Assembly (NCBI GenBank): GCA_000004985.1
Contig: GG738862.1
Length of the DNA: 64,000 nt
Source of the DNA: Naegleria gruberi
Lineage: Eukaryota
Reading direction: 5' to 3' (one strand)
Shown: in pieces, positions 12,567-42,953 of the stretch
Layout: each line of letters begins with the position of its first letter
Position numbering within the stretch: position 1 is the stretch's first letter
The notes under the pieces: model-generated
The model's input: only the letters and a program-made list of their open reading frames with translations
The model's database searches: none
Told to the model about the DNA's origin: nothing
Program-made: the position numbers and the translations under genes

Positions 12567-14436
12567 ATGACAAGTAGAGTTAAACTAGTTTTATTTGCTC
12601 TTTTCTCAATTGCCTTGTTATGTTTGACCATTCAAGGTACTGAAGGAAGAGGCATTGCTAAACGTTTCCAAAGAGCAATTCAGAAAGCTGCTCAAAAAGC
12701 TGCTGCCAGAGTAACCATTAATCATTGTCAAGCTGTTGGTGATCCTCATATCACTGATTTCAGAAGACAATACAAGGTAGGTTTTGAAATTAGACCAATT
12801 AATTGACATGCAATAGGATCATTATGGAGCTGGTGATTATGTTTTAGCCGAAACTGAGGATGGAAATTTTGTTGTACATGGAAGAACCACAAAGTTTAGA
12901 ACTGTCAGTGTTCACACTGGTCTTGCTGCTCTCATCAATAAGGAACGTAGAATTGAGTTTGATCTTGGCACTCGTCAAATTTATATTGATGGTGTTGTTA
13001 CCAATATGAATGTTGGACAAAAGATTCAATTAGATAATGCTGGATCATATGTTCAAAGAACTGGTCCACAAACTTTGGTTATTGCTGGAAAAAGAGGTGA
13101 AAGATGTACATTCTCATGGACATTCGCATGGTTGACACCATATATTGATTTCTACTTGGATGCTCCTTCCAATGTTCCATTCACTGGTGGTGTATGTGCT
13201 GACATGAAGTATTTGACAAGTAGTGCTAGTGGTGTTTTCCGTAATCACATAAAACGTACCATTAATACAGTTGTTCCAAAGAAACCAACACCAGCCAAGA
13301 TTGAAAAGGCCACTAAGAAATGTACTAAAGCTGGTTTGAGTTCTGCACTCCATCCAATGGCTTTCCGTTCATGCATGGAAGATCAAATTCAATTCGGTGG
13401 AAAGGGTGGTGATGCTTTAGCTAAGAATGCTGCCAAGAATCAAAAACATCACGATAAGAATGTCAAGAAGTGGAAGAAACAAGCTGTCAAGAAGGCAATT
13501 GCCAAGGCTGTTAAAAAGGTCATTAAGAAGGCAGTTGCAAAGGCAAGTCCAGAAGAAAAGAAGAAACTCAAAAAGCAATTGAAAAAGGTTGCCAAGAAAG
13601 TTCAAAAGAAGGTTGTTAAAAAGGCTGCCAAGAAGGATGCCAAGAAGAGAGCAAAGAAACTTTCTAAGAAGGCCCAAAAGAAGGCTGCCAAGAAACTTGC
13701 CAAGATTTTGAAGAAATCAGGTAAAAGAAGTAAAAGAAGAGCTGCAAGACGTGCTAAAAGACAAGCTGAAAGAAGAAAGAGATTGGCTAAAAGACGTGCT
13801 GCTAGAAGACAAAGATTGGCTGCTAGAGAAGCTGCTAGAAGAAGAAAAGCTCAAAGACGTGCTGCTAGAAGAGCTGCTAGACGTCTCAGAAGAGCTGCCA
13901 AAAAGAACTCAAAAAGACATTCCAAGAAGGCATCCAAGAGATCTAAGAGGAGAAGACACTCTGGCAAGAAATCCCAAAAGAGAGTCAAGAAAGTTATCAA
14001 GTGTGCTAAAAGAAAGAGAGGTGTTAGAAAGTCTAAACGTTCCACAAGACGTTCTCTAATCAAGAAGGCCAAGAGGGCTGCCAAACGTGCAAAGAAAGCA
14101 TTGTTGAAGAAGAAACGTTCTGCCATTAGATCTCAAAAGAGAGCCATTAGAAGATTAAGAAGAACTGTTAGAAAGTTGAAGAGAAAGTCCAGAAGAGCTC
14201 GTAACATCGTTAAGAAACTCAGAAGACGTGCTGAAAAGACTGGTAAGAAGAGAGCCATTCGTGCTTACAAACTTGCAATTAAGGCTGCAAGAAGAGCCAG
14301 AAGAGCCGCCAGAAGAGCATGTAAAAAAATTAACAAGAAGGCAAGAAAGATCAATAAGCTTGTTAAAAAGATTAAGAAAGCTGCTAAAAAAGCTGCCAAA
14401 AAGGCTGAAAAGAAGGTTTTGAAGAAGAATAAATAA
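12567..14436 (+). CDS. Secreted protein: signal peptide, VWD-like N-domain (..CQAVGDPHITDF..), then about 330-aa polybasic K/R/A tail; exons 12567..12776, 12817..14436
   Basis: Hydrophobic N-terminus MTSRVKLVLFALFSIALLCLTIQG. A 40-nt GTAGGT..ATAG intron joins the two ORFs in frame. The C-terminal half is almost entirely K, R and A (AKKAAKK / RRAARR repeats). Confidence 0.7.
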
Positions 14437-19877: not shown

Positions 19878-21818
19878 TTATTTTGAATTATGATAAAAGT
19901 AGAGTTTCAGATTATGATTTTTAAATATTCTAATGATGGCATCAAGTGAACCAGATTCCAATACAACTGGATCATATCTCACTCTGATAATACGAAGTTT
20001 TTCGAATGATGTATTCTGAATCAAAGCTTGTGCACTTTCTGCATCATAAATGGTGACATCCAACCTGGTTACCTTATTCATTGGAGCAGAATACATTGCT
20101 CGAGCCAATGATGTAATAGGAGTGTTCAAAATAATTTCCTTAATATTTGAAAAGTCTGAATCCATAGTGATTGACATTGTCTTGTAATTTTCAATGGTTG
20201 TCTTTGGTATAATATGTAAGGTCAATTTGTCTAGATTTTCAAATGCTGTACCAACTCCAATATCAGTATTAATTAATTTTCCAATAGACCATTTCAAGGA
20301 TAATCTCTTCAAGTGTGTATATGGATAAATTAATAAGTGTTCAATATCATCCACATAAGTACATTGATTAATTTCAAGGAACTCGAGTTGTGGAAATTTC
20401 TCTGGAATCGATACAAGTTCTTCTTGACAGTTTGCGTGTATGTGACGAATGGCTAACGTTTTCAAACCGGATATAGTCAAGTTGTTGTCTAACTCTTGAA
20501 AAACTTCTGGGCTATCTACCCTATCAATATACAGATATTGTAATTTTTCCATCTTCATCTTGAACAATTGTACAAGAAATGCATCACCAAAACCTCCAAT
20601 ATTTAGATAGACAAGGTTGGATTCTTTACCTATAGTAGTGGTAGTATCAGCAAGTGTGATAACTTGAGAAGGGCTTGCTTTCAAACGTAGGTGAGTGAGT
20701 TGAATAAATTTCGAGTTTGAAAAAATGGCAGTAACTATGGATGAAATTTGAGCTACTGGTATAGTGGTAAATTTCAAATCCAATTTTGTAAGTGAAAATA
20801 TTTCAAAGGATGAAGGAAAAGGACCAAGCTTTGTAGATATATTTTCCAATTTCAATTCTGTCAATCTCTCTTTAACAGAAAGAAGAGATTTATATACCGT
20901 ACGTCCAATATTGTTCACAGATACTACTCTTAAATTGTACAAGTATGGATTATTGATGGCATATTTGAGATCTGCTGTTTTTCCAGGAGAAAATGAACAA
21001 TCGTCAATTACAATAGTCTTCAATTTGCTCAAATTTGTGTTATGTACATCAGGTCCAAGAACTGTACAATTCAAATGTCTTATTCTCAAATGAGTCAAAT
21101 TAACACATGCTTTGAATATCCATTGCCATGCTTTAGGTTTCAAATTTGCACGAACATCCAAACAGGCAAGATTCTTAAAGCATGGACTACCAATAAACTT
21201 TTTCAGAACAGTACTCTTGATCGTTTCTTTAATGTAGGCCATAGTCACTCCACATTGTGCTTGTTTCCACTCAGACGAAACACTCATCAAGCGAATGGTT
21301 TGAAAATAGGGTAAATATTGCATAATCTTGGAAACTACATCCGAACAGAATACATTACTACTTTCATTACTGGCATAGAAAGGTGAACCGGAAGTGTTGC
21401 CATCAGAAACCATTGCTTCTTGATCAAATTCTTCAAATTTAATCTTTTTTCGTGATGGTTCGAATTCTTGTTGATGATGATAAACATTGATCACTTCGGA
21501 ATCTGCTTCTTCGTCGTCTATTGTATCCAATTCAATGAATTCTTCATCGTCATCATCGTCAACATTAATTACTTGATGACTTCTCTTTCTGGCTCCATCG
21601 TTGGTTCTGACCATAGTGTTTTTGCTTTTTTTTTTTTGCTTTTGTGTAAATTGGAATGTTTGTTTGCTTCTGGAAATAGAAATTGTTAAAACAAGTTTAT
21701 TGGTTGGAGAACAATTCTTCTTGTCCATGTTAAAAATGGTGAAATGCACTGACTGGGTGTGATTGTTATTCACATAATTGTTTAACAATGTTTGATATAT
21801 TTCTTCATTGATTGTCAA
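19878..21818 (-). CDS. F-box / leucine-rich-repeat protein (start possibly at Met 21614)
   Basis: F-box-like VVSKIMQYLPYFQTIRLMSVSSEWK followed by many LRR units (LxxLxLxxC..). Acidic D/E stretch upstream. Confidence 0.7.
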   Translation of the reverse strand: MTINEEIYQTLLNNYVNNNHTQSVHFTIFNMDKKNCSPTNKLVLTISISRSKQTFQFTQKQKKKSKNTMVRTNDGARKRSHQVINVDDDDDEEFIELDTIDDEEADSEVINVYHHQQEFEPSRKKIKFEEFDQEAMVSDGNTSGSPFYASNESSNVFCSDVVSKIMQYLPYFQTIRLMSVSSEWKQAQCGVTMAYIKETIKSTVLKKFIGSPCFKNLACLDVRANLKPKAWQWIFKACVNLTHLRIRHLNCTVLGPDVHNTNLSKLKTIVIDDCSFSPGKTADLKYAINNPYLYNLRVVSVNNIGRTVYKSLLSVKERLTELKLENISTKLGPFPSSFEIFSLTKLDLKFTTIPVAQISSIVTAIFSNSKFIQLTHLRLKASPSQVITLADTTTTIGKESNLVYLNIGGFGDAFLVQLFKMKMEKLQYLYIDRVDSPEVFQELDNNLTISGLKTLAIRHIHANCQEELVSIPEKFPQLEFLEINQCTYVDDIEHLLIYPYTHLKRLSLKWSIGKLINTDIGVGTAFENLDKLTLHIIPKTTIENYKTMSITMDSDFSNIKEIILNTPITSLARAMYSAPMNKVTRLDVTIYDAESAQALIQNTSFEKLRIIRVRYDPVVLESGSLDAIIRIFKNHNLKLYFYHNSK

Positions 21819-22280: not shown

Positions 22281-23405
22281 ATGGAAGAACATCAAGCTCT
22301 CGTTATTGACAATGGTTCTGGAATGTGTAAAGCTGGTTTCGCAGGTGAAGATGCTCCTCGTGCTGTTTTCCCATCATTGATTGGTAGACCAAAACAAAGG
22401 TCAATTATGGTTGGAATGGGTAACAAGGATGCCTATGTTGGAGATGAAGCCATGTCCAAGAAGGGTATCCTCGCTCTCAAATATCCAATTGAGCACGGAA
22501 TTATCACCAACTGGGATGATATGGAAAAGATTTGGCATCACACTTTCTATAATGAATTGAGAGTTGGACCTGAAGAGCATGGTGTCTTGTTAACTGAAGC
22601 TCCATTGAATCCAAAGGCAAATCGTGAAAAGATGACACAAATCATGTTCGAAACCTTTAGAGTTCCAGCCATGTATGTTGCCATTCAAGCTGTCTTGTCC
22701 TTGTATGCTTCTGGAAGAACTACTGGTATTGTTTTGGATTCAGGTGATGGTGTTTCACATACTGTTCCAATCTATGAAGGTTATGCTTTGCCACACGCCA
22801 TTTTAAGATTGGATTTAGCTGGTCGTGATTTAACTGATTACTTGATGAAGATCTTGATGGAACGTGGATACAGTTTCAACACCAGTGCTGAACGTGAAAT
22901 TGTAAGAGATATTAAGGAAAAGCTTTGTTATGTTGCATTTGACTTTGAAACTGAAATGAAGAAAGCATCTGATAGTTCATCCATTGATACTTCATATGAA
23001 TTACCAGATGGTAACGTTATCACAGTTGGTAACGAAAGATTCAGATGTCCAGAAGTTCTATTCCAGCCAAACTTTATTGGAATGGAAGCTGCTGGTGTTC
23101 ACGAAACTACTTTCAATTCTATTGGAAAGTGTGATATTGATATTAGAAAGGATTTATATGCCAATGTTGTTCTTTCAGGTGGTACAACCATGTTTGAAGG
23201 AATTGCTGAGAGAATGAACAAGGAATTGACAGCTATGGCTCCAGCCTCGATGAAGATTAAAGTTGTTGCTCCACCTGAAAGAAAGTATTCAGTTTGGATT
23301 GGTGGTAGTATTCTTTCCTCATTATCAACCTTTCAATCTATGTGGATATCTGCAGAGGAATATGAAGATGCTGGCTGTGCAATTGTTCACAGAAAATGTT
23401 TCTAA
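22281..23405 (+). CDS. act: Actin (divergent isoform, about 85% like conventional actins)
   Basis: Unmistakable actin sequence from [26 protein letters not shown] through [20 protein letters not shown]. Single exon. Confidence 0.95.
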
Positions 23406-23539
23406 ACCAAGTTTACTCATAGTCATCTATCACATAAATTGTAAATAACCAAAATAAATTATCCTTATTATCATGAGAACAGACAGCCCAAAACAACCTT
23501 TAACATTTTTAGAATCCATCATAGCTATTAAGGTAAAAA

Positions 23540-23657
23540 GACTACAGCACCACAGGTTCCCAAGTTGTCTCCAACCTCAGTACTGATGTGGCTCGACGAT
23601 GCTTAACTTCTCAAATCGGACGGGATGAGGTGCATTCATCGTGATATGGCCGTAGCC
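23540..23657 (-). rRNA. 5S ribosomal RNA gene followed by T5 terminator
   Basis: The minus-strand sequence GGCTACGGCCATATCAC...GTCCGATTTGAGAAGTTAAGC...GGGAACCTGTGGTGCTGTAGTC aligns along its whole length with eukaryotic 5S rRNA. A TTTTT run follows. Confidence 0.85.
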
Positions 23658-27410: not shown

Positions 27411-29209
27411 ATGGAATCTCAAAAAAAAATGGCAACAACACCTTTGGATCTTTATATTCCGTCCCTGAATAGAACCTTGGATAACATGACGCTGTTGTAC
27501 TGCCAACTTCCTCTCTTTGAAATTGAAGGATTGAGTAGAGAAAAAGTTCCTGTATTTTCTAATGGTCTATGTCCTGACACGTGGTCGACATTTGGCACGG
27601 CCTTGACATTTCTGGTGGTGTATGTTGTGCAATTAGTGGCCAGTCTCGTTCTTATTATATGGAAGAGAAAAAATGGTTTCATTGTGGCCAGAAATCCTGT
27701 ATATATGGTAATGGCCAGCTGGTCAACTGTGGTTTATGTCTTGTTGGGTTCTATTAGGTTTTTAGTTGGTCGGAAAATCTTCCCATGTGCACTTTATACA
27801 TTTAGTTACTTTTTATTTCCTCCTACAATGATTTTACCAATCACATTGAGATGTACGAGGGCTTTCTTCTTGTACAAGGTTAGTTTCAAATTTATTCGAA
27901 TTGAAAATCATGAAATTGATGATTTAAATTTATGATATTTTATTGGATATCATGATGATAATGATTGGACATTTGGAAATTCTAGTTGAACTTGCTCAAA
28001 ACTAAACTTTTTGAAGAAATTCCAAAGAAGGACCCACAAACTAAACCAAAAGAAAGTGAATTAACCAAAGCCACTCCTCCATCCTCTCTCACTATTTCTA
28101 ATTCAGCGATTTCTGATATGGACAATACTTCATCAATATTGTCCACATCTGCTCTCAAGATTGCGATGGAAGAACCAGAAGACGAATTCACAAATTCAAC
28201 TAGAATCTCAGATCTCTCACAAAAGAAAGACTTTCGTCTATTGAAAGTCTACGAGTTTCTTTCTGGAAAGAAAATCATGACTATTGCCTACTTGACTGGT
28301 TTTGCATTGAGTATTGGAACTTGGTTACTGTTTGGAGTCATTGAGGAAGCTGCCTATTCGAATGATCCTAATCCAGAAAAGAAGAGAATCTTTCTCATAG
28401 AAGGAGGAATGTTAGTTTTCACAGTTGGTTGTTCAGTAACCATCACCGCTGTTCTTATCATTGCCATTTTGTGTTTGATTCTTATTGTTTTTGAGGTTTC
28501 GTTTTTAATTTTACTTTTCAAATCAGATCGTGACACTTGGAATATCAAGAAGGAAACGTTTGTGCAATTGATCTTCCAGATATTGGTTGGAATTCTATTT
28601 ATTGTGCTGAGTCAATTGCATGATTTTGATACAATGATTGATTACATGTGGCCTTACGCTAATGTTATATTTTATTACTTGTTGATTGACAATTTCATTT
28701 GTACCATATTGCCTATCATTTATGCAATTAGAAAGGATAGGAAAGATTCCAATTTTAATCAGAATGTGGATAAGGTGGAAGAGAAATCAGATTTGGAACG
28801 AATTTTGAGTGAGAAGAAAACATTTGATGTGTTATTGGATTTTGGAAGAAGAAGTTATTGCACGGAGAGTATTTTGTGTTATCGAGATATTCAAGATTAC
28901 AAAAAATTGAAAAAGCTTGCCACAAGAAAGAAGCTTGCTATGAGAATAATCAATTCCTATCTCAAGAAGGACTCTCCCTATGAATTGAATATGCCAAAGA
29001 TTGAACAAAGAGGTGAAGAATTGAAATCTATTGTAGAAAATAGTGATGAAATATCTAGAGATTTGTTCCAATCGATACAGGAACATTGCATGAATGATAT
29101 GAAAGATGTCTTTGAAAGGCTAAAATCATCTAATAAGGAGATTCAATCATTAATTACATCATGGAAAAGCAATTCTCAATCAGGTGCTGTTTCAACAGAA
29201 TTGAATTAA
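27411..29209 (+). CDS. Seven-transmembrane receptor fused to C-terminal RGS domain; exons 27411..27878, 27986..29209
   Basis: A 107-nt GTTAGT..TCTAG intron joins two ORFs in frame. There are 3 TM helices in exon 1 and 4 in exon 2. RGS box FDVLLDFGRRSYCTESILCYRDIQDYKK... Confidence 0.65.
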
Positions 29210-34760: not shown

Positions 34761-36899
34761 ATGTCTCCACATACTATCAAACACACTCTTGTGTTAGTTT
34801 TCTTCCACTTGATCGTGCTTGCATGTGCTATCAATGCGCTTCCTTCATCTTATCGATACTATGCCTATGACGAAGTTAATGTAAACATGTCAGTTGCTTT
34901 CGTTAATAATTACATGTCAGCAATAATTTGGAAGGATGTTAGCAGGTCGAATAATATTACATCTATGGAGGATGTAGAGCATGTAATGAAGAAACAGAAT
35001 TCATTGAAAATAGTATTTATTTCATCCGAAACTAAACTAAACAAATTGTGGACCGGTGTGAGTAACAGCTTCTACAAGTCAAATATTGTGAAAATTTACA
35101 GTATTGAGAAGGGATCATGTTTTAGATATCATGTTCTCGAAGACTTTGATATTATTCTTGCTAATAGAAACTTATTCTTGGAAAGGTTTAGAATATTCAA
35201 GAAATCAACTGGTAACAGAAAGCCATCTAATCAAGCAATTCAAACAAGCGACTTTGAGTTTATTGACCTATATCCCTATACAGTTGCACAACTGAACGCA
35301 AGTAATTCTGATTTAAATTTGACACTTTCGAATGTGAAACCAACATGTGATGGTTTAATGCAGAGTTTTGAATATGAGCCAAGTTTATTTAATGCTTATT
35401 CAATAGTTCATTCAGATAGCCTTATTAGAAGCAGTGATCTTGCATTCCTAAGAAAGTGGAATAATTTCGAAATCAAACAACTCAACAAGTACAATCAACA
35501 AATTATCCTAAATGATATTTACCTTTCGTATTACTTTAATTCAACAACTAATCAAACCGATTTTGAGTCTCAACTTCTCCCTTCCACATGTTCAGTGTGC
35601 ATGAGTGATTTTTGTGGATATGATTTGGAATTTTCACAAGTTGACTATTGGAATATTCCACAAGCAATAATTGTGCTTTCCTATTTAATTCTCTTGATAT
35701 TTTCTGGGGTATATACTCAACCTTCTATCAAAAGAAGAATGGCGATTCCGTTTCTTCCAATTGTACTTCTCTATTTTCAATTTGCACTTTCAGATAGTTT
35801 GGAACTAATGTGTTCGAATGTTCTAGTTACCATTATTGGATTACTATTGACTTTTGTACTATTAAGCCAAATAGCAACCTATTCCAGACTCTATTATTTG
35901 AGAAATTTGTATAATCTATTTTCAAAATCAAAGCAAGTCAACGCTCGATTAAGTGGAACAATTCCAGGATTAATTTTGACCGTAGTAATTCCATTTTTCC
36001 TCTCATTCATCTTTGCTTTACCTTATAGCTCAGTTACTTTGGATGTTTCTCAACCTAAAAAGTTAATATTTAACATTGCACTTGCCTGTTACATTGGAAT
36101 TTGTTGTATTATTGGACTTGTTGTAATATCAATTGATGGAATAATCAACCGTAAAAGGTGGAGAGAAAAGGGAATTGCCTACATGCTCTTTTTCGATGAT
36201 CCATTCCTAGTTCGAATCGATATGATGTTACTTTCACTTTGTTTGATTTTAATCATCTTGATTGGAACTGTTGGATCACTGAACAGACATCTTTCGTATT
36301 TCCTTAGAACTATGATATTTTTATTTTGTTGTTTCATATCTGGAGGACAATGTATTGTGAAATATTCTATTGATAGATTGACCAGTTGGAAGAATGAAAG
36401 TAATGAATCAGTATTTGCTACCAAATTTGAGGAATATATGAAACATGACGATTTCAAAAAGATTATGAGAGAATATACTGTGAAAGAACTTTCATTGGAA
36501 AATTACAATTTCTTCCTCGTTTTGCAAGATTTGAAAACGAAATCGAATAGAGCACTCACATTGCAACAAATGATTGATGTGGAAAAGGAGTATTTATCAC
36601 CAGTTGGATCTTTCGAATTGAATGTTTCGTCAAACACCAAAAAATCATTTCACACTTTAAAGAAAACTGTTACGGAGAGTTCATCATCAACACTGGATAC
36701 AGCATCTACTTCGACAACTTCCATTGAATTAGATTCCACTAGTTCGAAAGCTACAATCAAAATTCAAGATTTGGTCACTGTATTCGAATATGAAGTTTTG
36801 GCAAATTTACATGACACATTTTCTAGATTGGAAAAGACAAATGAATTTACTACATGGTTGCAAGTTTACACTATTCAAAAACAAAATAACATTATTTAA
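34761..36899 (+). CDS. Signal peptide, large Cys-containing ectodomain, 7TM and C-terminal RGS domain receptor
   Basis: N-terminal signal, about 280-aa ectodomain, seven hydrophobic helices, RGS box MREYTVKELSLENYNFFLVLQDLK... Paralogue of 27411.. and 60862.. Confidence 0.7.
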   Translation: MSPHTIKHTLVLVFFHLIVLACAINALPSSYRYYAYDEVNVNMSVAFVNNYMSAIIWKDVSRSNNITSMEDVEHVMKKQNSLKIVFISSETKLNKLWTGVSNSFYKSNIVKIYSIEKGSCFRYHVLEDFDIILANRNLFLERFRIFKKSTGNRKPSNQAIQTSDFEFIDLYPYTVAQLNASNSDLNLTLSNVKPTCDGLMQSFEYEPSLFNAYSIVHSDSLIRSSDLAFLRKWNNFEIKQLNKYNQQIILNDIYLSYYFNSTTNQTDFESQLLPSTCSVCMSDFCGYDLEFSQVDYWNIPQAIIVLSYLILLIFSGVYTQPSIKRRMAIPFLPIVLLYFQFALSDSLELMCSNVLVTIIGLLLTFVLLSQIATYSRLYYLRNLYNLFSKSKQVNARLSGTIPGLILTVVIPFFLSFIFALPYSSVTLDVSQPKKLIFNIALACYIGICCIIGLVVISIDGIINRKRWREKGIAYMLFFDDPFLVRIDMMLLSLCLILIILIGTVGSLNRHLSYFLRTMIFLFCCFISGGQCIVKYSIDRLTSWKNESNESVFATKFEEYMKHDDFKKIMREYTVKELSLENYNFFLVLQDLKTKSNRALTLQQMIDVEKEYLSPVGSFELNVSSNTKKSFHTLKKTVTESSSSTLDTASTSTTSIELDSTSSKATIKIQDLVTVFEYEVLANLHDTFSRLEKTNEFTTWLQVYTIQKQNNII

Positions 36900-37243: not shown

Positions 37244-37299
37244 TTTTACTGACCTACTCGTAAAATTATTTTTGACCTAAATATTAGTTTTTACTAGAT

Positions 37300-38436
37300 T
37301 TATCTTCTTTCATTTCTAGAGAGTCTTCTGGCAGATCTTCTTGGAGCTCTTCTGTATCTTCTATTTCTCTTATTTGGGAATCTTCTACCGAATCTTTGTC
37401 TTCTAGCTTGTCTTCTGGATGGTCTTCTACCGAATCTTCTTTGTCTTCTAGCTGGTCTTTGTCTTCTGGCTGGTCTTCTAGATTGTCTTCTTGGTCTTCT
37501 GGCTGGTCTTTGTCTTCTGACTGGAGCTCTTCTTCTTGGGGCAACTCTTCTTCTTGGAGCTCTTCTTGGGGCTCTTCTAACAGATCTTCTCTTTGGAGCA
37601 GCACACTTTCTCTTTACAACTCTCTTCTTTGGGGCAGCACACTTTCTGACCTTTCTCTTTGGGGCAGCACACTTTCTCTTTGGAGCTCTTCTCTTTGGAG
37701 CAGCACACTTTCTGACCTTTCTCTTGACAATTCTCTTCTTTGGAGCACATCTTCTTCTTCTGACGATCTTTCTCTTTGGAGCTCTTCTTCTCTTTGGAGC
37801 AGCACATCTTCTTCTTCTGACGATCTTTCTCTTTGGAGCAGCACACTTTCTCTTAACAACTCTCTTCTTTGGAGCAGCACACTTTCTCTTGTTGTTTCTT
37901 CTGATGGCCTTGGTGACCTTCTTTGATTTCTTTGATGAAGCAGACTTCTTAGCAGCAGCTTTAATCTTTCTGGCAAGAGCTCTGATATTCTTTCTGTAAA
38001 TCTTTCTCAAGATAGCTCTGATCAATCTGACACCAGTAGCAAAATTAGTAGATGTCTTTAAATCAGCAATGTAAGTCTTTAAATCTTCAGCCTTTCCGTC
38101 CTTCTTCAATTGAGCAAGATGCTTTGAAACAGCAACCATCTTATTCATAATAATAGTAGCTTCTTCCAAATTGAATTTATCTTGTTCAGAGTTTCTTTTA
38201 ATCAATCCAAGTTCCTTCAATTGCTTCAACATGCCTCTCAAAAATTGAACCTTTGACTTTTGGTTCTTTCCTTCAACAGCGTTGAGTGTAGCATTAACAA
38301 CTTGCACAATATTTTGAATAGTCTTTGGTTGAGTAGCCAAGGCTGGAGTTGTTGTTGGTGTTGCGGTTTGTGCAAAGACGCTAACAGCAATACTCAACAA
38401 GGCAATTAAAAAGGCGATCAAGAGTGTCTTGTTCAT
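37300..38436 (-). CDS. Secreted protein with signal peptide, helical N-domain and arginine/lysine-rich tandem-repeat tail (KCAAPKRKxVRR units, then RRxxRRP repeats)
   Basis: MNKTLLIAFLIALLSIAVSVFAQ signal. The tail is more than 60% K/R with at least 8 Cys-containing repeat units. The underlying DNA is a tandem repeat. Confidence 0.7.
   Translation of the reverse strand: MNKTLLIAFLIALLSIAVSVFAQTATPTTTPALATQPKTIQNIVQVVNATLNAVEGKNQKSKVQFLRGMLKQLKELGLIKRNSEQDKFNLEEATIIMNKMVAVSKHLAQLKKDGKAEDLKTYIADLKTSTNFATGVRLIRAILRKIYRKNIRALARKIKAAAKKSASSKKSKKVTKAIRRNNKRKCAAPKKRVVKRKCAAPKRKIVRRRRCAAPKRRRAPKRKIVRRRRCAPKKRIVKRKVRKCAAPKRRAPKRKCAAPKRKVRKCAAPKKRVVKRKCAAPKRRSVRRAPRRAPRRRVAPRRRAPVRRQRPARRPRRQSRRPARRQRPARRQRRFGRRPSRRQARRQRFGRRFPNKRNRRYRRAPRRSARRLSRNERR
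37580..37900 (+). repeat. Imperfect tandem DNA repeat (about 24-48 bp units, CTTTGGAGCAGCACACTTTCTC...) encoding the polybasic repeats of the minus-strand gene
   Basis: Motif recurs at least 8 times. Produces multiple spurious antisense ORFs in the track. Confidence 0.6.
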
Positions 38437-40192
38437 CGTTCTCGTGTTTTTTGTTTTTTTTTGGATGATTTTTTGAATTGCTGTGTGGAAGATGATGAGA
38501 AATAGATTTGGAGAGATTATAATTTTTCAGAGGAGGAATTATAATGGACTATTGACAGTTGAAGGGTGGTTATTGTATGAACAGAGGTTGGATTAGCATG
38601 ATTATTAAGATGATGATAATTAATGAAATATTTGGTTTTGGATTATGTAATCATGATTCGAATACTTTGTTAGAATCTAATAAAATCAATGTAAAGTACT
38701 GGTTAAATTAGATTACAATTTATCTAATGTAAAATGGAGAGTGGAACTTGTTAAAACTATTTTAAATTGTTACACTGAATAGATCTTGTTCTCAAATTCA
38801 GAAGAGCAGCTTCAATTCATTACAATAAAGATTAATCAACAATTTTTTCAAACTGTGACAAAAATCAATTAGTTCTCAAAAAGTGTTAGCTTTAAAGATG
38901 TCACAGTTCATAAGATGACACTGAATCCAATTAGAGAGATGTGCAACTTGTCATTAGCCGAATATATTGTTTTTTTTTGTAATGATAATACATTTTGTCA
39001 TTTGTGCTGGGTGAGTGCATTGATGATAGAACTGGAAAATCGTACAAGATTTCAATTTTATTCGAAATAAATCTCAATTTTCTTTTTTTATTTACAAATT
39101 AGGATAATTTAAAAGTGATTCAATATTTCGGTGTAATTTACATCTTTTTCGATTTGGTAATCTTCTTATTTGATTGTTTAGCTCTCTTTTCAATTGAATT
39201 TTTAGAAGATCTTTTCACTGAAATTTGTTTACCATTTAAATTTGCATGATGATAATCAATATTATTACGATGTCTTGTTCCACTTATAATATTAGATGTG
39301 TCAATATCAAATAATGGTAATCTTTTAGATAAATCAATTGGTTTAGATCTTGTCCAGACTGTTTTTGTTGGAATTCTATCTTCGGAAGATGAAGAAGTAT
39401 TTGATGAAGTATTTGATGATAGGAAAATTAATGCAAATCAACAAAAGAAAATAACAAAATGGTCTCAACAAGAAGAAATATGTATAATTCCTCCAATAAT
39501 ACTTCACAATTTAATTCCGAAATTTCTCTGGATAATATTGTTGGTGGTACAAGAAAAAGAAATTTAATTGATTTCCAAACATTGAATTCTATTGGAAATG
39601 AAACAAGCAAAACTTCCAAATCTCAATCAAATAATACTTTAGAAATGAGAAACAAACAATTCAAAAAGTGGTAGTCTCCCCAACTCGACATTTTGAACCC
39701 CTAGGCATTCATTGTAAATAAAACCAAAATAATAACAAAGAGTTGAAAATCAAATGTTCCAGTATTTGCAGAATCTGATGTGTTCACTATCAGCTTGTTT
39801 CATTTTGTGAAGAACATATGATGGTGCTTTGAATAGCTCCAATGCAACCTGTGAATCTTCACCTTCATAATAATTGACAAAAATTGCTAATCTTAAATGA
39901 TTACATTCATCACCTGAAAGACACAAAACAATATGTGCAAGGCAAAGTGTTTTTCCATAACTTCTCTTAGTAAAAAATACAATTGTTAAATGTTAAAAGC
40001 TGATTGAAAATCATAAAATTCAATTTGAAAATCAACAATAATATCAATAATTCTACAATAAGTGTCTACTCTTTTTTTGAATAATTGTATTTATATCATC
40101 TCCAGTATTTGATCGAATTCTTCATGATAACAATCTGTACAAACCTTTGTAAATAAAATAAGTTTAATTAGAACTGACAAGCAAAATAAAAA

Positions 40193-40852
40193 ATGATCAA
40201 ACAACAACCAAACACAATACCCAATAGAAAGATCAGCGAATTGCCCGATGAAATGCTAATGGAGATTTTTGAATTTGCCTCTGTTGACACTGTAAATGTT
40301 TTCAATTATTCGAAAGTTTGTTCCAAGTGGAGATGTCTCTTGCATAGTTCAACTCCTATCAATGCACAAGCATTAATATTTAAAAGAATTAGATTGGCAT
40401 TTCCTCCCCGATTTAAAAACATTAATTCAAAACAAATCCAAGAAACCATCAAGGCAAAACCCAACATTCAGTCCTTGAACGATTATTTCATTCTATTGAA
40501 AAAGATTACTGAAAAACGATTGAACCAAACGACCATTGAAAATATCAAAAAGTGGAGTAGAATATTCGAAAGTAAGGCCTTTTATTTCAATTATCAAGTG
40601 TATGGACTTGTGTTTCGATTCTATTTGGCAATGGTTTCGTTTTATGTGGCAATGTTTCTTGACGAAAATCAAAGAACTTATAAGAGTGGATTATGGTGGT
40701 TTCCATTCCTATCGTGTTTCATATTCCTTCTTGATGAGATTGTGAAAATTCCATATCAAATCCTCTCCATTATTTCCAATTATTGGTTTGGTGAATTTTT
40801 GTTCAGAGGGTTTCATTTGATATCAAACCAATTTCTATGGCTCCAATCCTAA
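40193..40852 (+). CDS. F-box-like N-terminus followed by TM helices
   Basis: ISELPDEMLMEIFEFASVD...CSKWRCLL F-box motif. Hydrophobic helices follow. The ORF overlaps the start of the next ORF by 16 nt. Confidence 0.45.
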   Translation: MIKQQPNTIPNRKISELPDEMLMEIFEFASVDTVNVFNYSKVCSKWRCLLHSSTPINAQALIFKRIRLAFPPRFKNINSKQIQETIKAKPNIQSLNDYFILLKKITEKRLNQTTIENIKKWSRIFESKAFYFNYQVYGLVFRFYLAMVSFYVAMFLDENQRTYKSGLWWFPFLSCFIFLLDEIVKIPYQILSIISNYWFGEFLFRGFHLISNQFLWLQS

Positions 40853-41375: not shown

Positions 41376-42953
41376 TTAGTGAAAATGACATTTCTTTGCG
41401 AATTGTTTGAATTCATTTCTCAATTTCTTGTTTTTGATTAAGCCCAAAGGACATCCATTTAATAAAGCCAATTTTATCAGTTCAATATCATCTTTTAAGG
41501 TTTCATCAATAAATTTAAATGCTTGTCCATTTTGTTCAATTGCTAATTTAAGTAAATTAACATCTGTTTTTAATTCATCACTGGCATATTGTAATGCTGT
41601 TCCTTTGTTTTTAATACATTCAATTACAATTTCTTTATCATTTTTAAATTCATCGGTTAATAAACTTAAATATAATCCATTTGTTTTAATTATTAACATT
41701 ATTAGATTTTTATCATTTTGTAATTTACTATTAATGGATTTGTAATTAAATGGTGATCTTTCTAATGCTTTTGTTACAATTTCAATATCACCTCGCAATT
41801 CAATATCTATATAGGGAAATATTTTTGCATTTATATCCAATAATTCCAAAATTAAGCTTCTGTTTGATTTTATTGAACTGTCAACAAAATAAAATGTTGA
41901 TTCGCAAATTGAAATTGCTATTTTAATAATTTCAACATTATTTAAAAAGTTAGAATTTTTAAAATTTAGTGGATTTTTTTTTAAAGCTTCCTTCACAATT
42001 TCCATATCCAGTAATAATTCATGAGGTAGATATGTGAATGTATCAGCGTTTAAATTAGATTTTACATATAAAAATGCATATTCTTTAATATTTTTAAAAT
42101 TATCATTTAAATATAAATAATTTAATCCATTTAATTTCATTGCGTATTTAATAAAATCTGAATTATCAATATATTTTAAACAAGATTTGTCATAATTGAA
42201 ACTATTATTTAAAATTTCCAAATCATTTTTAAGGATATTGTCGCATAATTTTAAAGTTAAATTTGAACATTTACTTGATGATATAATTACATCCCTATCA
42301 CTATACAATTTAGAATTAAAATATTTTAATGAAATATGATTCATGGTCAATAAACACATTTCTTTATCATTTCTAATTTCATCAGAAAATAAATTAAAAA
42401 TACAAATTTGATTATGATAATCCTGTGTGTATGAATAAAATCTAGTTTTATAATTATCTTTACGTTTGGAAAATAATAATTTAATAAATGTCTTACTTGC
42501 GAATAAATCATTATTGTTTTTTAAAATAATATTTACAATTTCCGATGACGAACTATTCAGTAATAATTTTAAGGATAAATTAAAATCATTATTAAAATAT
42601 GGTAGTAATGTTAAAATAATTTCATTGATATTAATACATTGAATTAATAATTGTTTATCTCGTTTTACATCCAATTCATTATTTTTCAATTTTGATTTGA
42701 TTAAGTCATATATTCTAGCTGTATTTATAGCCTGATCATTATATTGTCTTTTGAATATAGTTGTATTATTAATATTAGTAATTTCATTTAATAATTCTTT
42801 TTGAATATTTTTACAAAGACTTTTTAATTTGTATTCCAATTTAATAGATGAATAATTACAATCTAATTGGCATGTAACCGCTTGTTCTGAGCAATCATCA
42901 CGTAACAATTTATTATTTTGATCAATATCATTCCGTAAAATTGATTGCAGCAT
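41376..42953 (-). CDS. DUF4116-type repeat protein
   Basis: Repeats of form DxEIVxxALxxNPLNFKxxNxxLxND... alternate with (K)NGLxLxYL. Similar to the 56984..58840 protein. Confidence 0.65.
   Translation of the reverse strand: MLQSILRNDIDQNNKLLRDDCSEQAVTCQLDCNYSSIKLEYKLKSLCKNIQKELLNEITNINNTTIFKRQYNDQAINTARIYDLIKSKLKNNELDVKRDKQLLIQCININEIILTLLPYFNNDFNLSLKLLLNSSSSEIVNIILKNNNDLFASKTFIKLLFSKRKDNYKTRFYSYTQDYHNQICIFNLFSDEIRNDKEMCLLTMNHISLKYFNSKLYSDRDVIISSSKCSNLTLKLCDNILKNDLEILNNSFNYDKSCLKYIDNSDFIKYAMKLNGLNYLYLNDNFKNIKEYAFLYVKSNLNADTFTYLPHELLLDMEIVKEALKKNPLNFKNSNFLNNVEIIKIAISICESTFYFVDSSIKSNRSLILELLDINAKIFPYIDIELRGDIEIVTKALERSPFNYKSINSKLQNDKNLIMLIIKTNGLYLSLLTDEFKNDKEIVIECIKNKGTALQYASDELKTDVNLLKLAIEQNGQAFKFIDETLKDDIELIKLALLNGCPLGLIKNKKLRNEFKQFAKKCHFH

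Follow-up and report, generated by a model that had tools for sequence, protein, structure and literature searches.

A putative secreted polycation with a helical N domain and a repeat-rich cationic tail in Naegleria gruberi

The stretch of 64,000 nucleotides of Naegleria gruberi DNA investigated here (GenBank assembly GCA_000004985.1, contig GG738862.1; referred to as the window) contains on its minus strand, at positions 37300..38436, a gene for an extremely basic protein of 378 amino acids (aa). As had been proposed in an earlier interpretation drawn from the nucleotide sequence alone (the sequence-only reading in the following), the protein is composed of a signal-peptide-like N-terminus, a predicted helical domain and a tail with an extreme lysine and arginine content. 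With a confidence slightly above even, we regard it as an abundant, genus-restricted secreted polycation that combines a conserved carrier domain with a fast-evolving cationic tail. The elements of the gene and two competing open reading frames (ORFs) are as follows:

37300..38436, minus strand: complete single-exon coding sequence from ATG to TAA, 378 aa (stop codon 37300..37302)
38371..38436, minus strand: signal-peptide-like segment, aa 1-22, MNKTLLIAFLIALLSIAVSVFA followed by Q (assigned by hydropathy and small residues at positions -3/-1)
37885..38370, minus strand: N domain, aa 23-184 (assigned by homology and AlphaFold2 helices)
38287..38295, minus strand: N-glycosylation sequon N48-A-T50 (N48 and T50 invariant in the alignment; N-S-T in the homolog)
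37573..37884, minus strand: eight Cys-containing basic tandem repeats, aa 185-288 (assigned by unit table, Tandem Repeats Finder and repeat families)
37303..37572, minus strand: Arg/Pro-rich block tail, aa 289-378 (assigned by sequence patterns and Tandem Repeats Finder)
37284..37604, minus strand: poly-acidic, E/D-rich ORF of 106 aa, a mirror artefact of (AGA/AAG)n
37396..37926, plus strand: antisense Ser/Leu/Trp-rich ORF of 176 aa, a mirror artefact of (AGA/AAG)n

Reading frame, strand and codon usage

The start codon is preceded by an A-rich leader, and according to the ORF list no other in-frame start is present between the upstream stop and this ATG. The gene boundaries of the sequence-only reading proved to be exact, and the repeat stretch placed there at 37580..37900 is close to the measured one (37573..37884). 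The deduced protein contains 85 Arg and 55 Lys residues (K+R 140/378), 11 acidic residues (D+E) and 8 Cys, resulting in a calculated isoelectric point (pI) of 12.0 and a net charge of +129.

The codon usage of this frame is nearly exclusive: Arg is encoded by AGA throughout (85/85), Pro by CCA (24/24), Lys by AAG in 51 of 55 cases and Ala by GCT/GCC in 48 of 50 (GCA 2/50), with binomial p values between 1e-6 and 1e-18. In ten reference genes of the window, AAG accounts for 35% of the Lys and AGA for 62% of the Arg codons, and among 27 window ORFs the 378-aa ORF is the extreme on each codon measure (AAG, AGA, CCA, Ala); the respective fractions also exceed those of the actin gene of the window (AAG/K 0.93 versus 0.71; AGA/R 1.00 versus 0.67). 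Since the non-repetitive N domain alone shares the preference (AAG 23/27, p = 1.8e-6), the codon bias is not a mere by-product of repeat duplication. Short A-runs avoid poly(A)-type stalling tracts, and the longest A-run of the coding sequence comprises 4 nucleotides (nt) despite its 55 Lys codons. The pattern held in common with actin points to selection for efficient translation, i.e. high expression; the gene is real and, judged by its codon bias, probably strongly expressed.

Because many frames of purine-rich (AGA/AAG)n DNA are free of stops, the length of an ORF in the tail region proves nothing. The alternative-frame ORFs over the repeat DNA (89-176 aa) start with GTG or TTG and are located wholly or mostly inside the repeat tract. 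The plus-strand Ser/Leu-rich ORF, which had already been set aside as an artefact in the sequence-only reading, starts with TTG and received a codon score of -0.11 versus +0.42 for the minus-strand ORF; it is a mirror image of the repeat. Exclusively in the 378-aa frame are an ATG, a signal-peptide-like segment, a non-repetitive domain with a homolog and the preferred codons joined, which upholds the location of the gene on the minus strand. A programmed frameshift into the poly-acidic frame was considered and rejected, the E/D-rich ORF being merely the +1 reading of (AGA)n.

N-terminus and helical N domain

The first 22 residues are arranged as MNK, a hydrophobic core of 18 residues (Kyte-Doolittle mean 2.76) and the junction VFA|Q with Val and Ala at positions -3 and -1; the 15 residues after the hydrophobic segment are uncharged, and beyond aa 1-22 there is no second hydrophobic segment (Kyte-Doolittle maximum 0.82). 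A heuristic analysis of the N-terminus for n-, h- and c-regions, based on hydropathy, was positive.

A Thr/Pro-rich linker (aa 23-37) leads to the helical region (aa 38-184). AlphaFold2 was run on the whole protein and on the N domain with a two-sequence alignment, and yielded models of low confidence (mean predicted local distance difference test score, pLDDT, of 51-53; 50-80 in the N domain) with helices at residues 38-54, 59-75, 90-113, 116-128, 130-166 and 171-184. The segment aa 23-170 is itself basic (pI 10.6) and devoid of Cys. A cationic amphipathic character marks the final long helix (aa 131-166, GVRLIRAILRKIYRKNIRALARKIK) and is kept in the N. lovaniensis homolog described below (hydrophobic moment 0.71-0.75, and 0.99 in the homolog); this helix could be either part of a bundle or membrane-active. 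Sequence searches against Pfam, NCBIfam and PDB gave no significant match for the 378-aa protein. The best Foldseek hit of the low-confidence model against PDB (E 0.56) was attributed to helical-bundle noise and disregarded.

The cationic tail

The tail (aa 171-378) consists of 52% K+R with a single acidic residue (net charge of about +107) and approximately 10% Pro (21/208 residues; no PRP triplets); it is left disordered, without secondary structure, in the low-confidence AlphaFold2 model. Its first part is an array of eight units of the consensus [KR]-C-A-A-P-K-[KR]-[KR]-(x)-V-[KR]-R, which read in order KCAAPKKRVVKR, KCAAPKRKIVRRR, RCAAPKRRRAPKRKIVRRR, RCAPKKRIVKRKVR, KCAAPKRRAPKR, KCAAPKRKVR, KCAAPKKRVVKR and KCAAPKRRSVRR and measure 36, 39, 57, 42, 36, 30, 36 and 36 nt (10-19 aa), all multiples of 3. 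All 8 Cys of the protein are found within aa 186-278, spaced 10-19 residues apart. The formula (KCAAPKRKxVRR)n of the sequence-only reading thus holds with regard to the eight Cys units of close consensus; a constant unit length does not (30-57 nt).

That this tail is built from a tandem DNA repeat, as had been suggested, was substantiated by several measures: Tandem Repeats Finder reported a period of 36 nt with 8.9 copies (69% matches) at 37587..37891 and a period of 66 nt with 2.1 copies (90%); the copies of a 75-nt and of a 52-nt block are 89% and 90% identical, respectively (repeat families D3/D4); and the 24-nt unit core gave 7 matches versus 0.00 expected in 100 shuffles. The proposed recent origin of the repeat could not be sustained. 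Pairwise identity of the units is 56-96% over 27 nt; however, every Arg is encoded by AGA, every tail Lys by AAG and every Pro by CCA, so that DNA identity tracks protein identity. With one codon per amino acid the repeat identity is confounded and the duplication cannot be dated; dating by DNA identity was therefore rejected.

The second part (aa 289-378) had been described as a heptad repeat (RRPxRRQ)n. Instead of a strict heptad it is made of irregular x(1-4)-RR(R) blocks (such as APRR, QRPARR, QSRR and FGRR), with RRAPRR occurring three times; in the corresponding DNA (37303..37572) Tandem Repeats Finder detected short-period repeats of 12-51 nt.

A homolog in Naegleria lovaniensis

When 1.84 billion representative proteins were searched exhaustively by phmmer, the N domain (query aa 1-178) retrieved one true homolog, the "hypothetical protein" C9374_008892 of N. 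lovaniensis (XP_044545069.1 / A0AA88GI67; E 7e-30), which aligns with aa 32-166 (approximately 135 aa) at 50% identity with 72 invariant columns; tblastn of the N domain against the N. lovaniensis locus gave E 1.4e-29. BLASTP with composition adjustment did not align the two homologs owing to their tails; valid results come from the phmmer and tblastn searches with the N domain. A second phmmer match, to a repetitive protein of 999 aa, was rejected as spurious: it covers only aa 16-60 in 10 stretches. Judged by sequence, the 378-aa protein and C9374_008892 form one unnamed Naegleria family with a homologous helical N domain. Neither metagenome and viral contigs, scanned with N-domain patterns, nor metagenomes, scanned with the repeat DNA unit, yielded a relative, and there was no sign of a giant-virus origin; a literature search for Naegleria arginine-rich secreted proteins or for the locus tag C9374_008892 returned nothing.

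Besides the N domain, the two proteins share the FAQ junction, the N-x-T sequon, an RRxPRR-containing tail and biased codons (homolog: AAG 26/36, AGA 46/53; AAG fraction 0.29-0.33 in two of three neighboring genes measured). The tail of the homolog (RRVPRRAPRRVSRNRRQRRVSRRAPRRQ) is Arg-rich but differs in being shorter (162 versus 213 aa, counted from the end of the alignment), less basic (35% versus 52% K+R) and interrupted by hydrophobic, helical-looking segments; it contains no Cys and no Cys repeats, so that the cysteines are not a conserved family feature. The motif RR.PRR occurs 3 times in the 378-aa protein and 4 times in its homolog, and the Smith-Waterman score of the two tails (129) exceeded that of shuffled sequences (93 +/- 11), 129 being reached in 1 of 500 shuffles. 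This evidence is weak, and common descent of the RRxPRR tail part is hinted at.

The annotated N. lovaniensis protein starts internally (MIHTSFAQQ) and lacks a full signal peptide. An upstream ATG (MKSLIIFG) is present on PYSW02000036.1 at about 9950..10020, one base out of frame; a single added T in the T-run of this locus would yield MKSLIIFGLLAIVCAIMIHTSFA followed by QQ, i.e. a full signal peptide. The missing N-terminus is probably the result of an assembly (homopolymer) or annotation error and not of a real loss. The conservation of both the FAQ junction and the N-x-T sequon is consistent with passage through the endoplasmic reticulum (ER). No synteny was observed: of seven gene products of the window that were compared by tblastn with the N. 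lovaniensis locus, only that of the target gene found a match.

A second polybasic gene in the window

12567..14436, plus strand: polybasic gene 12567, 609 aa (exon 1 12567..12776; GT..AG intron 12777..12816, 40 nt; exon 2 12817..14436)

In a six-frame scan of the window, at least 40% K+R per 60 aa was reached solely by the 378-aa gene and by gene 12567, which likewise encodes a signal peptide, a folded N domain and a K/R-rich tail. After the signal peptide, the 12567 protein reads CQAVGDPHITDF..YGAGDYVLAE; this segment corresponds to the beginnings of the VWD domains in human FCGBP and contains their GDPH autocleavage motif (PDB 8rde_A, E 8.4e-7). A search with the VWD model of Pfam gave no match on the 12567 protein. 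Its tail of approximately 350 aa is Lys/Ala/Arg-rich (KKAAKK, RRAARR) with up to 57% K+R per 60 aa, and its codons are less biased than those of the 378-aa gene (AAG 78/118, AGA 55/71). The fusion of a VWD-like module to such a Lys/Ala/Arg tail is unusual in a heterolobosean.

The N domains of the two proteins are unrelated, in agreement with the sequence-only reading: a VWD-like GDPH domain in the one, a helical domain in the other, without homology. The further claim that two such genes represent a functional class was not established. What the two have in common is limited to a signal peptide and a positively charged tail, and the tail chemistry differs (Lys/Ala/Arg in 12567, Arg/Pro/Cys in the 378-aa protein); the occurrence of two such genes, counted within these 64 kb alone, is suggestive, and the class is a hypothesis.

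Comparison with known basic proteins

The 378-aa protein recalls mammalian protamine P1 by its Arg clusters with interspersed Cys and the tail of linker histone H1 by its AAPK[KR][KR] repeats. Protamines comprise about 50 aa and H1 possesses a winged-helix globular domain; both are nuclear and without signal peptides. The protein investigated here has 378 aa and a signal-peptide-like N-terminus and gave no protamine match in Pfam at E <= 10; likewise, there was no Linker_histone match at E <= 10, and its N domain is all-helical according to the model.

Cathelicidins are organized into a signal peptide, a conserved pro-region and a variable cationic C-terminus. In such a succession of signal peptide, conserved pro-region and hypervariable cationic C-terminus, the 378-aa protein is like the precursors of cationic antimicrobial peptides, among them cathelicidins (Bac7/PR-39) and the arminins of Hydra. 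In contrast to the four-Cys cathelin domain of the cathelicidins, for which no Pfam match was obtained, the N domain is helical, basic and free of Cys; moreover, the tail of approximately 200 aa is far longer than any mature antimicrobial peptide. Such precursor families are confined to particular taxa; they evolve fast, and their expression is very high (PMC10945409).

A basic C-terminal extension of 121 residues is known from the cyst wall protein (CWP) CWP2 of Giardia, the CWPs being disulfide-linked (PMC2851657). CWP2 differs in having leucine-rich repeat (LRR) and Cys-rich domains, neither of which is present in the 378-aa protein, and there is no sequence similarity; LRR models gave no match on the latter, though they matched a neighboring gene in the same search. 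The 378-aa protein is thus without the defining features of protamines, cathelicidins, linker histones and Giardia CWPs, and the likeness is one of composition and layout only.

Proposed function

For the secreted polycation favored here, the following course may be envisaged: The predicted signal peptide would be cleaved at VFA|Q and the protein inserted co-translationally into the ER. The helical domain of approximately 140 aa with its conserved N-glycosylation sequon would represent the conserved carrier or oligomerization part, and the disordered tail of approximately 200 aa the working part, which would bind electrostatically to polyanions; candidate targets are bacterial envelopes, nucleic acids, polyphosphate and acidic glycans or surfaces. 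In an oxidizing compartment the 8 Cys could form inter- or intramolecular disulfides and link the tail into multimers; the protamine-like intermolecular disulfides suggested in the sequence-only reading are a conjecture of this kind. The tail would evolve fast through gain and loss of repeats while staying cationic.

As to the biological role, our guess by analogy is that the amoeba, a bacterivore, directs the polycation against its prey or uses it as an antimicrobial. Such a role is favored on account of the bacterivory, the conserved pro-region joined to a hypervariable cationic C-terminus, the confinement of the family to one genus, the codon bias above that of actin and the known Naegleria effectors. 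In Hydra, antimicrobial-peptide families are confined to the genus, evolve fast and exceed actin in expression (PMC10945409), and Naegleria secretes antimicrobial pore-formers that are made from precursor proteins (bioRxiv 10.1101/2020.01.16.908186).

Several points weigh against such a secreted polycation. The N domain is basic too (pI 10.6) and cannot neutralize the tail; in eosinophil major basic protein and in arminins, acidic pro-pieces neutralize the cationic part. A tail rich in KR and RR would be cut to pieces upon any contact with Kex2/furin-like convertases. The homolog is without tail Cys, so disulfide crosslinking is no family feature, and with different neighboring genes at the N. 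lovaniensis locus the two genes are at most putative orthologs. Furthermore, a single homolog cluster without paralog clusters was found, unlike in typical antimicrobial-peptide families, and the structure models are of low confidence (mean pLDDT 51-53).

Alternative interpretations

The main alternative, possible though tentative, is a structural role outside the cell, in the cyst wall, in the surface coat or as a substrate adhesive; the tail would bind acidic wall polysaccharides or negatively charged surfaces, and the Cys would crosslink it into an insoluble network. Eight regularly spaced Cys in the repeat array would be appropriate for such a network, the strong codon bias suits an abundant structural protein, and gene 12567 encodes, in its VWD-like GDPH domain, a module known from extracellular proteins that form gels; a precedent is CWP2 with its basic C-terminal extension, the CWPs of Giardia being disulfide-linked (PMC2851657). 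However, the tail of the homolog is devoid of Cys, and the Pfam search revealed neither LRR nor domains that bind chitin or cellulose, nor any other wall domain.

Rather doubtful is a bolder version of the secreted polycation, an "extracellular protamine" whose helical domain would escort the disulfide-crosslinkable tail in order to condense or permeabilize polyanions outside the cell or in the phagosome, and which, together with the VWD-polybasic gene 12567, would constitute a new heterolobosean class of secreted effectors or matrix proteins.

An intraluminal packaging or sorting factor is unlikely. In this case the tail would condense a polyanion in secretory or acidocalcisome-like organelles, or would act as a cleaved sorting or condensation signal, a role that has been put forward for the tail of CWP2: without any counter-charge of its own, a protein of net charge +129 needs a polyanion as partner on its secretory route, and the basic domain of CWP2 is processed and carries sorting information (PMC2851657). 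The argument is, however, purely analogical, and neither such organelles nor such partners are evident from the sequence.

Still less probable is a protein that is not secreted, with the hydrophobic stretch being a membrane anchor or irrelevant and the tail an intracellular nucleic-acid-binding or nucleolar domain of the protamine, H1 or arginine-rich-motif type. The annotated N. lovaniensis model without a full signal peptide would agree with this, as would the resemblance of AAPK[KR][KR] and RRQxRR to linker-histone tails and arginine-rich RNA-binding motifs. On the other hand, the N-terminus shows the canonical n/h/c layout followed by 15 uncharged residues, the N-x-T sequon is kept in the homolog, a 1-nt shift in a T-run would account for the truncated N. 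lovaniensis model, and neither an H1 globular domain nor a protamine was matched in Pfam at E <= 10.

Finally, the absence of any gene, or a gene on the opposite strand or in a different frame, with the purine-rich (AGA/AAG)n simple-sequence tract being open by chance, is extremely improbable: (AGA)n-like DNA is indeed open in all frames, with other-frame ORFs of 89-176 aa, but these start with GTG or TTG wholly or mostly in the repeat tract, and it is in the 378-aa frame alone that an ATG, a predicted signal peptide and a non-repetitive domain with a homolog at E 7e-30 come together and that the preferred codons are used near-exclusively.

Significance

If truly secreted and abundant, the 378-aa protein would be one of the secretory proteins with the highest charge on record; how a polypeptide of +129 passes the ER and Golgi, and which polyanion it meets, would then become questions. 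It could be a new amoebal antimicrobial or a component of a cyst or adhesion matrix; the pathogen N. fowleri belongs to the same genus. At present this is a genus-restricted orphan gene with a low-complexity tail, of relevance to the Naegleria and polycationic disordered-protein fields; by itself it does not address a long-standing question.

Genomic surroundings

The window is eukaryotic nuclear DNA of 30-38% G+C with dense, mostly intron-poor ORFs. The only true homolog of the 378-aa protein places it in Naegleria, and an identity of just 50% sets it apart from N. lovaniensis itself. In addition to four dispersed tRNAs, LRR and protein-kinase genes and an M24 aminopeptidase, the following features were assigned:

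3..1274, 19878..21818, 40193..40852 and 52519..54330: F-box genes
22281..23405: actin gene (Pfam Actin, E 1e-143)
23539..23657, minus strand: single dispersed 5S rRNA (Rfam, 105 bits), between the actin gene and a small ORF and outside any rDNA array
27986..29209, plus strand: second RGS-domain gene
34761..36899, plus strand: RGS-domain gene, 712 aa (weak RGS match, E 0.0012)
41376..42953 and 56984..58840, minus strand: DUF4116-repeat genes

Upstream of the 378-aa gene, the 1.75 kb from 38437 to 40192 are AT-rich (27-30% GC) and contain no ORF of at least 100 aa, a long spacer for so compact a window. The 712-aa RGS gene converges on the 3' end of the 378-aa gene, 400 bp away, and encodes a long hydrophobic N-terminal region that by eye appears to be multi-pass.

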